A stretch of 60,827 bases of DNA from an uncultured Bacteriovorax sp. (GTDB lineage Bacteria; Bdellovibrionota; UBA2428), in the NCBI GenBank assembly GCA_964640545.1, contig CAZXHL010000002.1, forward strand, positions 1-60,827, read 5' to 3'. The translations under genes were made by a program, and so were the position numbers. This document shows positions 3,196 through 30,660 of the stretch, in pieces. Each line of letters starts with the position of its first letter. Positions within the stretch are counted from its first letter, which is position 1. The notes under the pieces were generated by a model, which saw nothing but the letters and a program-made list of their open reading frames with translations, ran no database searches and was not told the DNA's origin.

Positions 3196-3227
3196 AAGGC
3201 TGATTCCTTGGGGAGTCAGCCTTTTTT
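3196..3227 (+). terminator. Rho-independent terminator after phaR
   Basis: AAGGCTGATTCC, loop TTGG, GGAGTCAGCCTT, followed by TTTTTT. Confidence 0.6.
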
Positions 3228-9981: not shown

Positions 9982-10692
9982 ATGTTTGGGCCTATTGAAC
10001 GTGTTGTTTTTGATTTGGATGGAACTCTTGTCGATACGATGTCGCATGTTGTGGAGAGTATTTCTTTCGCCATCAAAAAGGTAAAAAACATTGAGGTTCC
10101 CCGGGCCGAGATCATTTCAAAGTTTGCCCCGTCGACTGAGGAGATCCTATCTGTATGGTTTGATTCTGAGCAAGAGAAGGTTGCGGCTATTGAGGCTTGG
10201 GGGGAGTGTCAGGGCGAGGGCTTTGGATGGGCTCGTCCGTTTGAAGGTGTAGAAGAAATGCTTAGTGGCTTCAAGAAAGGCGGCGTGCCGATGGCGATTT
10301 TTACGGGACGCAATCGTGAAGGGGCTTTGGGCATTTTGGCTGAAAGAGGCTGGCTAGGTAAGTATTTTGATGAAGAGTTTGTGATTGGCGGGACCGATGG
10401 ATTTGCGCCCAAGCCTTCGGGGGCGGGACTGCTCGAGTTGATGCTTCGCTGGAAGCTCGCTGGAGATCAGGCGAAAAAGACGACGCTCTATGTGGGCGAC
10501 CATACTCATGACCTGGTTGCGGGGCGTGAGGCGGGTGTTAGAACCGCATTGGCTTTGTGGGACCGAAGCATGGGCTTGGAAAAAACAGAACGAAGTCACT
10601 ACAAAAGGTTGTGGTCTGAGGCCTCGGACGAACTTTGTGACGTGAGGCTCAGCGACCCACGTGGACTATTGGCCTGGCTTGAGTCGACCTGA
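9982..10692 (+). CDS. HAD-superfamily phosphatase (phosphoglycolate phosphatase-like)
   Basis: Motif I VVFDLDGTLVDT and motif IV YVGDHTHDLVAGREAG. Confidence 0.7.
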   Translation: MFGPIERVVFDLDGTLVDTMSHVVESISFAIKKVKNIEVPRAEIISKFAPSTEEILSVWFDSEQEKVAAIEAWGECQGEGFGWARPFEGVEEMLSGFKKGGVPMAIFTGRNREGALGILAERGWLGKYFDEEFVIGGTDGFAPKPSGAGLLELMLRWKLAGDQAKKTTLYVGDHTHDLVAGREAGVRTALALWDRSMGLEKTERSHYKRLWSEASDELCDVRLSDPRGLLAWLEST

Positions 10693-10793
10693 GCTATCTG
10701 TGGCAGTAGCCAGGTCCCAAATATACAAACATTTACGTAATTTTCGCCTAAAGAAACCTTGTCCCATTTGAAAACGAACTTATATTTAGCCTT

Positions 10794-11678
10794 ATGAGAA
10801 AACTAGGCAATATTGCATTGATGTTCGCGGTGGGTCTTGGAATCTCCATTACCCTAATGTTCCTTTTTGAGCTTTTTGGGATTGATATCTATCTGGCCCA
10901 GAACGGAATCAATTATGTTGGTTTGTTCGTATTCTGTATGCTTTTTGGCTTTGCAGGGTCGTTTATCTCGCTCTTCCTTTCTAAGCGAATCGTAAAGTGG
11001 ACGATGCGGATCCAAATTGTGGATCCATCTCAAGCAAATGGCGAGATGATGTGGCTCACTGAAACTGTGCGCCGCCTGGCTCAAAGTGCGGGACTTCCAG
11101 AGACTCCAGAGGTTGGAGTCTACGACTCTCCGGAGATGAATGCTTTTGCAACGGGCCCATCAAAGTCAGATTCATTGGTAGCCGTTTCTACGGGATTATT
11201 GGCATCCATGAATCGCGCTGAACTTGAGGGCGTGTTGGCCCATGAAGTAGCTCACATTGCCAATGGCGATATGGTTCGTATGACCTTGATGCAAGGAGTG
11301 ATTAATACGCTCGTGATGTTTGCAGCGCGTATCGTGGCTCATCTCGTAGCTAGCCGTATCAGTGATCGCGATAGTTACTTTATGCGCTTTGCGCTTGTCA
11401 TGTTTTTCCAAATTGCTTTTGGTTTTCTGGGGATGATTGTTGTAAACTGGTACAGCCGCAAGCGTGAGTTTCGTGCGGACTCTGGCGGTGCTGCTTTAGC
11501 TGGAAAAGACAAAATGATTGCGGGGCTTCAAGCTTTGAAAGATAGAATGAATGTCGTGGACAATTCTCAACCTCAATTGGCTGCTCTAAAAATCTCTAGC
11601 AAGCCCAAAGGCTTTGCGGCAATGTTCAGCACTCACCCTCCGCTCGCAGAACGCATCGAAGCTTTGCGAATTTCATAA
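10794..11678 (+). CDS. htpX: Membrane zinc protease HtpX
   Basis: HEXXH (LAHEVAHIANGD), four TM segments, and C-terminal STHPPLAERIEAL typical of the M48 protease HtpX. Confidence 0.85.
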   Translation: MRKLGNIALMFAVGLGISITLMFLFELFGIDIYLAQNGINYVGLFVFCMLFGFAGSFISLFLSKRIVKWTMRIQIVDPSQANGEMMWLTETVRRLAQSAGLPETPEVGVYDSPEMNAFATGPSKSDSLVAVSTGLLASMNRAELEGVLAHEVAHIANGDMVRMTLMQGVINTLVMFAARIVAHLVASRISDRDSYFMRFALVMFFQIAFGFLGMIVVNWYSRKREFRADSGGAALAGKDKMIAGLQALKDRMNVVDNSQPQLAALKISSKPKGFAAMFSTHPPLAERIEALRIS

Positions 11679-11906
11679 AACAAATTTGCTCGGTTAATTG
11701 CTATTCAAAACCCGGCTGTATCAATCCGACTGCAATTTAAGCCTTGAATTCATCACACAGGACGAGGGGAGTGCCACTCCCCTCTTGCAGTCTGGCGCCT
11801 GCAATTCACCCCATAGTCCTGTGCATGAATCCAACCCTTAAATTGCAGTCGGCTTGCTTCAAGAGCTATAGACTAGCCAACAATTAACCGAGCAAATTTG
11901 TTTTAT
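11675..11906. repeat. 232-bp long imperfect palindrome with perfect 26-bp termini (MITE-like or structured element)
   Basis: 11675-11700 ATAAAACAAATTTGCTCGGTTAATTG is the exact reverse complement of 11881-11906. Inner arms also pair (11726-11741 with 11837-11852). There is an internal GC hairpin at 11764-11784. Confidence 0.8.
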
Positions 11907-11915
11907 GAACAAAGG

Positions 11916-12749
11916 CTAATCGACGACGTTTTCGCCGCCGTCGATGTGAAGGACGTTGCCTGTCATAAAGTCGAAGTGTGGCAATGCGAATGCTGAGATT
12001 GCTTTCGCGACATCTTCTGGAGTTGTGAGTCTTCCGAAGGGATTGCGCGATTTTGCAGTTTCAATCATGGTGTCGTTGCCTGGAATTTTTCTCAACGCTG
12101 GAGTGTCAGTAACGCCAGCTAAGATTGCATTTGCCGTGATTCTTCTAGGTGCAAGCTCAAGGGCCAATTGTCTGCAGTAACTCTCAAGCGCACACTTCGC
12201 AGCACTGACTGCGCCATAGGACTTCCATACACGTGAAGAACCAGCAGAAGTCATTGCAAAGATTCTTCCACCATCAGCTAATAGGCCCGCAGCGACAAGG
12301 TCTTGTGTCCAATAGACAAGGCTGTTGGCCATTACGTCTAGGGTCATATCAAACTGAGCTTTCGTAAGAACGGCTTTGGGGTCTTCGTCGATGAAAGGCT
12401 TGAGGGCTCCGAAGGCGATAGAGTGAAGGAGGACGTGGATCTTGCCTTGGGCAAATGCTTTCATTTGGGTGATCGCATCAGCACGCTTTTCAGCGTCGGC
12501 AGCATTCATGTTGATGAAGTGAGCTTTGCGCCCAAGGTCTGTGATCTTCTTGGTGATCTCTTCAACGTGAGCCATTCCGGCTTTGCGGTCCATATGGACG
12601 CCGATAATGTTGAATCCCGACCTAGCAAGTTCAAGTGCCGTAGCTTCTCCGAAGCCAGAGGAAGCTCCGAGGATAAGGGCATATTGCCCGTCAAAATTTT
12701 TACTGTGTTCACCAAATACGTGTTGCGACATAGGAGTTCTTTTAATCAC
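11916..12749 (-). CDS. Short-chain dehydrogenase, FabL-like enoyl-ACP reductase candidate
   Basis: Rossmann motif ILGASSGFGEA and a Tyr-x6-Lys catalytic spacing (SYGAVSAAK), as in FabI/FabL-type enoyl reductases. Confidence 0.5.
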   Translation of the reverse strand: MIKRTPMSQHVFGEHSKNFDGQYALILGASSGFGEATALELARSGFNIIGVHMDRKAGMAHVEEITKKITDLGRKAHFINMNAADAEKRADAITQMKAFAQGKIHVLLHSIAFGALKPFIDEDPKAVLTKAQFDMTLDVMANSLVYWTQDLVAAGLLADGGRIFAMTSAGSSRVWKSYGAVSAAKCALESYCRQLALELAPRRITANAILAGVTDTPALRKIPGNDTMIETAKSRNPFGRLTTPEDVAKAISAFALPHFDFMTGNVLHIDGGENVVD

Positions 12750-17089: not shown

Positions 17090-17130
17090 TTTCCTTTAAA
17101 GTTTCGTCAAGCCTTTGACGTTTTTAAAAA

Positions 17131-17163
17131 AGAGGCGGTGCACAATGCATCGCCTCTTTTTTT
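17131..17163 (+). terminator. Rho-independent terminator
   Basis: AGAGGCG ... CGCCTCT followed by TTTTTTT, and preceded by an A-tract (bidirectional type). Confidence 0.6.
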
Positions 17164-29456: not shown

Positions 29457-29481
29457 TAACTGTGCGCCGGTAACAGTTGGT
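29457..29481. repeat. Left terminal inverted repeat of the IS
   Basis: TAACTGTGCGCCGGTAACAGTTGGT. It is itself partly palindromic (AACTGT...ACAGTT). Confidence 0.85.
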
Positions 29482-29535
29482 TGGAGTCTATGGGGCTGAG
29501 GGGTTTGGCACTGGATTCGCAGTGGCCATGCTTCT

Positions 29536-30621
29536 ATGAGCACTATTCACTGTCCAAAATGCAAGCATTCCTCTTTCTTTAAATGGGGTTTTCATAAGAA
29601 CATCCAGTGTTTGGGGGGAAAGTCTCTTCAAAGATATCGTTGTCGTCGTTGCCAAACGTTGTTTTGCCAGAACACTACACTCTTCCATTTTAGGCTTAAG
29701 AAGCCTGATCCAGCCCTGAATTCAAAGATTTTTCAGGCATTTATCCACGGTTTATCTAACCGTGAAATCGGAAGGTTTCTTCATATTAGTGAGCATTGTG
29801 TGCGGGGAAGATTGGATCGCATGAGCAAACAAGCTTTTGTATTTCACAATAAGGTTCTGCAAGACATATCTGCCATTGAAGCGATTGCATACGATGGGCT
29901 CGAAAATTTTGCGGGTTCACAATATGATCCCAACAACATTCAACAGGCGATTGGAAGTGAAAGCTTGTTTATCTATGACTTTAACTTTGCGCCTTTGAAT
30001 CGCAAGGGGCGAATGTCGTCATGGCAAAAGAAGAGGTTGCTAGAAATTGAAGCGAAGCATGGGAGGTACAATCCCTCTGCTATACGGGTGCAAAGCGCCA
30101 AAATTTTTAAAAGGTTAAAGGCGTTGAGCGCGGGAAAGCTGGAACTTCTAAGTGACGAGCATTTTCAGTATCCGCGGGCACTAAAAGAGGCGGGAGTAAA
30201 GCCAGAAAGCCATCTCAGAATAAGTTCGAAGGCGTGTCGAAATTTTCAGAATATTTTATTTAGTGTGAATCATGCAGATCTTTTGGCTAGGCAGAGACTT
30301 GCCGTGTTTGAGCGAGAAACGATCAGCTTTGCAAAGACTGCCGGGCGCATGTGCCAGAAGTATGCGTTGTTTCTGCTACATAAGAACTATATGTGTGCAC
30401 AGTTTACAAAACGGCATGTGAAAAGGCCGAGAGCACATGAGCAAAGTCCAGCGCAACAAATAGGGGTTGCGGATAGGATCTTAAAGTTTGGTGAGATATT
30501 TAATGGGTTCCCAGGAAATCAAGAAAAGGAGGAGTTGAACGAGGATTGGCAGTTTTTTTACGATGGGAAAGTGCCGAATGACTGTTTAAGGAGCCTTCGG
30601 TTTAAAAGCCGGGCAGCTTAG
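29536..30621 (+). CDS. IS transposase with N-terminal zinc ribbon
   Basis: CPKC...x...RYRCRRC zinc-ribbon as in IS1 InsA / IS1595 transposases, with Asp-containing blocks AYDGLENF and IYDFNF. It lies between the IRs. Confidence 0.7.
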   Translation: MSTIHCPKCKHSSFFKWGFHKNIQCLGGKSLQRYRCRRCQTLFCQNTTLFHFRLKKPDPALNSKIFQAFIHGLSNREIGRFLHISEHCVRGRLDRMSKQAFVFHNKVLQDISAIEAIAYDGLENFAGSQYDPNNIQQAIGSESLFIYDFNFAPLNRKGRMSSWQKKRLLEIEAKHGRYNPSAIRVQSAKIFKRLKALSAGKLELLSDEHFQYPRALKEAGVKPESHLRISSKACRNFQNILFSVNHADLLARQRLAVFERETISFAKTAGRMCQKYALFLLHKNYMCAQFTKRHVKRPRAHEQSPAQQIGVADRILKFGEIFNGFPGNQEKEELNEDWQFFYDGKVPNDCLRSLRFKSRAA

Positions 30622-30635
30622 TTTTTTGGTCCTTC

Positions 30636-30660
30636 ACCAACTGTTCCCGGCGCACAGTTA
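30636..30660. repeat. Right terminal inverted repeat of the IS
   Basis: ACCAACTGTTCCCGGCGCACAGTTA is the reverse complement of the left IR with one mismatch. Confidence 0.85.

Follow-up and report, generated by a model that had tools for sequence, protein, structure and literature searches.

Prokaryotic MITEs, of which MITEAba12 and QMITE2 of Coxiella are examples, are non-coding elements of less than 500 bp (about 50-500 bp) with terminal inverted repeats of 4-30 bp; stable stem-loops have been described for their transcripts, their copy number can be as low as 1 per genome, and a terminator role has been deemed plausible for them (PMC10969869). They lie in intergenic positions, their transcripts are predicted to form very stable stem-loops, and they are present or absent between related genomes. 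The Correia elements of Neisseria (CREE / NEMIS) are units of 100-250 bp with inverted ends of roughly 26-29 bp, which are often found at the 3' ends of genes and place a long duplex in the mRNA. Correia ends start TATAG[CT]GGATTAAC..., the dinucleotide TA is duplicated, and each genome carries hundreds of copies. RNase III is documented to bind Correia elements and either to cleave or to protect them (PMC2649163). The ERIC / IRU, YPAL and Rickettsia palindromic elements are imperfect palindromes over the whole unit, situated in transcribed intergenic or 3' regions, and each is represented by many copies and a consensus. Two further kinds of structured sequence bear comparison: integron attC sites, which have RYYYAAC ... 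GTTRRRY cores, a length of 57-141 bp and an adjacent integron, and bidirectional intrinsic terminators, which are hairpins of 20-40 nt placed between convergent 3' ends, with an A-rich flank on the 5' side and a U-rich flank on the 3' side.

The locus considered here lies in a stretch of 60,827 nucleotides from an uncultured Bacteriovorax sp. (“the window,” meaning the whole stretch that was analyzed), in which a long palindrome separates the convergent genes htpX and SDR (Table 1). A homology search with HtpX places the organism among Bdellovibrionota-like MAGs. Like the MITEs, the palindrome is short (230-238 bp, depending on where its ends are drawn) and intergenic, has terminal inverted repeats, no transposase or other coding capacity and a very stable predicted fold, and is present or absent at orthologous sites. 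It has in common with the Correia elements the size of the unit, the length of the inverted ends, the position at gene 3' ends and the long duplex expected in the mRNA; it resembles ERIC / IRU, YPAL and the Rickettsia palindromic elements in being an imperfect palindrome throughout and in its 3' location, although those are families of many copies with a consensus and no such family was found for this element. The best explanation, in which we have moderate confidence, is a lineage-specific insertion of a small, non-autonomous, MITE-like fold-back element mobilized in trans.

Table 1. Features of the htpX/SDR junction, in coordinates of the window.
Feature	Position	Strand	Basis or remark
htpX, M48 protease, 294 aa	10794..11678	+	Pfam PF01435, E 1e-41; NCBIfam protease HtpX, 336 bits (cutoff 245)
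Whole inserted fold-back element	11672..11909	.	inverted-repeat search; absence in L013 and L020
Left terminal inverted repeat, TTCATAAAACAAATTTGCTCGGTTAATTG	11672..11700	.	29 nt, 100% complementary to 11881-11909
Left inner arm, imperfect	11717..11753	.	contains perfect 16-mer 11726-11741; base-paired in every predicted fold
Off-centre GC-rich hairpin, GAGGGGAGTG-C-CACTCCCCTC	11764..11784	.	sequence and folds; neither strand has a T-run following it
Small second central hairpin, TTGCAG-TCTGGCGC-CTGCAA	11785..11804	.	folds and sequence
Right inner arm, imperfect	11825..11861	.	contains perfect 16-mer 11837-11852
Right terminal inverted repeat, CAATTAACCGAGCAAATTTGTTTTATGAA	11881..11909	.	outer edge 6 nt short of the SDR stop codon
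SDR-family reductase, FabL/FabG-like, convergent with htpX	11916..12749	-	Pfam adh_short_C2, E 2e-50

The terminal arms returned by the inverted-repeat search are complementary at 29/29 positions and stand 180 nt apart, so that the element measures 238 bp when all of the inverted repeat is counted as belonging to it; an alternative boundary model (11676-11905) gives 230 bp. The original prediction, made from the letters of the window alone, had described a 232-bp palindrome with perfect 26-bp termini: the palindrome itself stands, whereas its dimensions were too small, the inverted-repeat search extending the termini to 29 nt and the unit to 238 bp. The 26-nt core of the arms (11675-11700 / 11881-11906) has two exact matches in the window and none in 100 shuffles. 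Further in, the inner arms are 37 nt long and 84% complementary, and the pairings claimed for this region were recovered, with the 16-mer CCGACTGCAATTTAAG pairing perfectly across the two arms, TTCATCACACAGGAC pairing with GTCCTGTGCATGAA with a bulge, and the GC hairpin at the expected place. Owing to the small hairpin next to it, the element has an asymmetric centre, and self-alignment of the element with its own reverse complement gives 71% over the full length. The outer parts of the arms are A-rich on entry and U-rich on exit (ATAAAACAAATTT ... AAATTTGTTTTAT), and the GC content of the element (44.1%, against 45.5% for the window) shows that it is not more AT-rich than its surroundings. 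The original prediction had seen no ORF in the element, which indeed lacks coding capacity: all ORFs within it are of 47 aa or fewer, and the protein searches returned no credible homologue of them.

The chance of 29/29 matches at the match rate of the inner arms is 0.006. Perfect ends around a decayed interior argue against the uniform decay of a local palindrome, and the pattern fits what would be expected of a family of elements with conserved ends.

The palindrome reaches into one gene and falls just short of the other. The htpX stop codon (TAA, 11676-11678) lies within the left terminal repeat, as the original prediction had noted, and the last htpX codons are at or inside this repeat; the present stop codon of htpX is supplied by the element. 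The SDR stop codon (11916-11918; CTA on the + strand, TAG on the - strand) had been placed 10 nt beyond the right terminus, which agrees with the 9-10 nt counted from the 26-nt arm and becomes 6 nt when counted from the 29-nt arm. Against NCBIfam FabL the SDR reductase scores 165 bits, under the cutoff of 328 (equivalog cutoffs were not reached). Within the coding end of the SDR gene, in its last codons (11919-11945), there is a separate 10-bp GC-rich inverted repeat, ATCGACGACG-ttttcgc-CGCCGTCGAT, whose conservation extends to L013 and, nearly, to L020, the two relatives introduced below; it may simply reflect the conserved ...DGGENVVD end of the protein, or alternatively may, where a genome lacks the spacer, provide a 3' hairpin to the htpX transcript running into it.

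The comparison of orthologous htpX 3' regions provides the evidence for insertion. The order of genes, LpoB-TPR-HAD-htpX> <SDR-FliD-FliS, is the same in relatives, the closest of which, found by its HtpX (86% protein identity; P0002, GCA_041750195.1; locus L013), is about 72% identical in DNA, with a further group of relatives at 60-66% protein identity. In L013, htpX (10001-10867) and SDR (10864-11679) overlap by 4 nt, and the two stop codons share the sequence TTAA; in L020 (P0003, HtpX 64% identical) a gap of 15 nt lies between them. When the window is compared with L013, BLAST homology stops at window position 11674 and restarts at 11917. The junction was read by hand from the sequences and the BLAST coordinates, as a MAFFT alignment misplaced the insertion. 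In all relatives the HtpX protein ends 2-5 residues after a conserved ALR motif, and neither arm of the element resembles the flanking sequence or the sequence of the relatives. The original prediction had proposed this comparison, and the empty sites, with the 4-nt overlap in L013 and the 15-nt gap in L020, favour insertion. With two relatives at different distances lacking the sequence, and with the lengths of the HtpX tails in relatives, the parsimonious reading is that some 230-240 bp were inserted in the lineage of the window only.

The same junction has been altered in other members of the group. More distant relatives carry extra genes between htpX and SDR, three of them in L021 (4889-7469) and two in L034 (3862-5205), and a MazG-like gene is among these additional genes. 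The gain of 2-3 whole genes here indicates that the junction tolerates insertions, and the convergent htpX/SDR junction has thus repeatedly received insertions in the clade.

Two models of the element ends were compared by excision. Removal of 11672-11909 (238 nt) leaves the junction ...GCGAAT + CAAAGGC..., from which htpX would read ...ALRIKG* and terminate at a TAA (11917-11919) whose overlap with the SDR stop is the one seen in L013. Removal of 11676-11905 (230 nt) leaves ...ATTTCA + TGAACAAAGG..., from which htpX would read ...ALRIS* with a TGA stop, and the target would be an 8-bp palindrome divided as TTCA/TGAA. Both models leave an HtpX tail of normal length. A serine codon held in common with L013 (RNS...) mildly favours the 230-bp model; with a single copy to go by, the sequence is ambiguous between the two. 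The C-terminus of the present HtpX is likewise of normal length.

The target-site duplication looked for on the strength of the original prediction did not materialize in unambiguous form. No direct repeat was found outside the inverted repeat at either flank, and the only candidate is a palindromic TA (11676-77 / 11904-05) that lies inside the repeat. A TA duplication of the IS630/Tc1 or Correia type is disfavoured, as it would leave an ancestor without a stop for 30 codons and hence an implausible read-through HtpX of 324 aa.

Folding of each transcript strand, which had also been proposed as a check, gave structures far more stable than those of shuffled sequences: -113.6 kcal/mol for RNA of the + strand (z = -13.8) and -127.5 kcal/mol for RNA of the - strand (z = -12.9), with 0/200 shuffles folding as well in either case. 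The DNA fold of the element is similarly extreme (z = -13.9; 0/200 shuffles as good). About 84 base pairs are formed in the predicted fold of the element, and the model indicates that a long hairpin of this size, with a perfect 29-bp basal duplex, would form in either transcript that reads into the element.

The element is not an assembly artefact, a possibility ruled out by its identical presence in independent assemblies. Fifteen contigs encode the exact HtpX protein or a one-residue variant of it; the same 238 bp are found in 14 of these, assembled independently (JGI, ENA, Logan, NCBI), and the remaining one (L011) ends within the element after 228 identical bases. Over the flanks that were compared, the contigs match the window at 99.9-99.99% identity, and every one of them has the element at 100%; by this measure the 15 carrier contigs represent one strain. 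Because the element is invariant among these one-strain contigs, neither covariation nor selection on the structure can be read from them. That 14 assemblies run straight through the element speaks weakly against a high-copy repeat. Three of the contigs (L009, L010, and L011) are short, come independently from different samples, and all start within the gene for the HAD hydrolase, near window position 10570 and some 224 nt ahead of htpX; this shared start may mark a strain-variable breakpoint or a drop in coverage.

We could not identify a further copy of the element, for which the original prediction had proposed to look, in the window or in the other collections searched. BLASTN of the window at word size 7 returned the element alone, and the 26-mer matched only the two arms. 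An exact 20-mer of the terminal repeat, sought in 185,579 GTDB species genomes, gave no copy of the element and two chance matches, both of them identical to the right arm over 23 nt (CAACAATTAACCGAGCAAATTTG; L001 6100-6122 and L002 2958-2980); these were rejected as copies, the same 23-mer lying in a protein-coding gene that is orthologous between the two MAGs concerned, both gammaproteobacterial. In metagenome contigs the same 20-mer gave one single-arm chance match and no copy, three scans of viral contigs gave one chance match or nothing, blastn in distant mode against plasmids and phages gave no match, and the loci of the relatives contain no related sequence. At the protein level, where copies might have surfaced as spuriously called ORFs or tails of genes, concatenated six-frame peptides of the element found nothing at E <= 10 among 5.8 billion proteins, and the 47-aa ORF had two weak, repetitive matches among 1.84 billion representatives, which were judged spurious. 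The DNA collections of species genomes and metagenomes did not return the window's own locus, and these negatives therefore cover other organisms and, for this genome, the window alone. For MITEs in Bdellovibrio, a literature search yielded nothing relevant.

Nor was a parent IS with the ends of the element found, in the window or, by the exact 20-mer of the repeat, in the species genomes. The window does contain an IS-like unit of about 1.2 kb (29457-30660), adjoining aspS, with 25-nt inverted repeats (TAACTGTGCGCCGGKAACAGTTGGT) that match at 24/25 positions; each arm is itself a small hairpin, and there is no relation between these ends and the terminal repeats of the fold-back element. The ORF of this unit (29536-30621, 361 aa) has no Pfam domain and a weak, below-cutoff match to IS1-family transposases in their N-terminal part (E 2.7e-9), and its nine carrier contigs all show the same context and locus. 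From its sequence it looks like an uncharacterized IS-like element.

The MITE-like reading put forward in the original prediction is thus borne out in part: the architecture and the empty sites in relatives speak for it, whereas no further copy, target-site duplication or partner transposase was found. It is in these respects, with no flanking direct repeats, second copy or parent IS found, and in not being AT-enriched relative to its host, that the element differs from typical MITEs, and our confidence is limited accordingly. Membership of the Correia family itself was rejected: by eye the ends are unlike the Correia consensus, the TA model is disfavoured, the element is single-copy where searched, and the host is Bdellovibrionota-like. 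An attC site was rejected as well, the ends ATAAAAC / GTTTTAT missing the core at two positions each, the 238 bp being too long, and no integrase lying nearby.

The course of events under the MITE-like reading can be sketched as follows. The element would have landed where the convergent htpX and SDR reductase genes ancestrally abutted or overlapped at their stop codons, and a TAA in its terminal repeat would have become the stop codon of htpX. The most likely route would be mobilization in trans by a transposase recognizing the terminal repeats, and the present copy may be either recent or a sole survivor. By analogy with the Correia elements, likely by-products would be the insulation of the convergent transcripts, a block to 3' exonucleases or a substrate for RNase III.

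Two other origins were weighed. The sequence might be a one-off insertion or scar that owes nothing to transposition, produced by illegitimate recombination, by horizontal transfer or as the remnant of a larger, deleted insert, with the palindrome arising through snap-back or template-switch synthesis and the outer arms kept perfect by quasi-palindrome correction. An origin of this kind would sit comfortably with a sequence that is single-copy everywhere searchable, shows no clear target-site duplication, has the same composition as its host and occupies a junction that took up 2-3 whole genes in other relatives. We nevertheless consider it unlikely: neither arm resembles the flanking sequence or that of the relatives, the element contains no remnant of coding sequence, and the perfect 29-bp ends around a much more diverged interior have the look of an element recognized by a transposase. 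Very improbable, in our estimation, is an undescribed class of fold-back element that makes no target-site duplication and homes to the palindromic junctions (here TTCA/TGAA) at which the stop codons of convergent genes overlap or abut, a stop codon in each terminal repeat keeping both genes intact; such a mobile “gene-end insulator” would depend on a recombinase whose cuts are not staggered.

A different kind of explanation concerns why the sequence is there rather than how it came, namely that, whatever its origin, it is kept as a structured 3' RNA module, acting as a bidirectional terminator or insulator, as an exonuclease barrier or as an RNase III site. This is compatible with either origin, transposon or scar. 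The perfect 29-bp basal duplex is, by analogy, the kind of structure that RNase III cleaves, for which the Correia elements offer a documented precedent (PMC2649163), and the hairpin could block 3' exonucleases or separate the convergent transcripts. The predicted fold is extremely stable on both strands, the element occupies both 3' UTRs at the point where the ancestral genes met, its outer arms are A-rich going in and U-rich going out as in bidirectional terminators, and a terminator function is among those deemed plausible for MITEs (PMC10969869). The original prediction had offered a bidirectional terminator or stabilizer as its alternative, and this found no direct support: a consensus scan of 11400-12200 on both strands found 0 terminator-like sites of the canonical stem-plus-T-run type in or adjoining the element, and no Rfam family was recognized. 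The element is like a bidirectional terminator in its position between convergent 3' ends and in its A-rich and U-rich flanks, but its hairpin is about 190-240 nt long, against 20-40 nt, and the U-rich tract is paired in the basal stem; an intrinsic terminator was rejected, as on neither strand is a compact GC stem directly followed by a T-run. Textbook bidirectional intrinsic terminators, with an A-run, a GC stem and a T-run, are found elsewhere in the window (17126-17162 and 3196-3223; e.g., AAAAAAGAGGCGGTGCACAATGCATCGCCTCTTTTTT), from which it follows that the organism uses canonical terminators and that the element is unlike them. The relatives, moreover, do without any such spacer, and the sequence, being invariant, offers no covariation. 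Retention as a 3' module is in our judgement improbable. An independent non-coding RNA gene between htpX and SDR, whether an sRNA, a retron-like or another structured RNA, would account for a strongly structured, non-coding sequence; against it, Rfam gave no match at gathering score anywhere in the window and only noise (E 0.5-0.9) around the element, hence nothing meaningful even at E <= 1, no promoter-like site was found inside the element, no reverse transcriptase or other partner gene adjoins it, and the sequence is missing from all relatives compared. On the Rfam result, the promoter scan and the gene neighbourhood a retron or sRNA gene was rejected, and we give the whole idea of an RNA gene very little credence.

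In bacteria, insertions of MITE-like fold-back elements where convergent genes end are of a known kind, and the element described here is so far an orphan among them; as a single copy in a single strain, it has little wider significance at present. Should it prove to be a true MITE, it would be a first example of such an element in this Bdellovibrionota-like lineage, which has been poorly sampled, and also a clean natural case in which overlapping convergent genes came to be parted by a very strong RNA hairpin, with one stop codon replaced and the protein undamaged, and as such would provide a convenient test case for the effects of long 3' hairpins in convergent transcription and mRNA decay.
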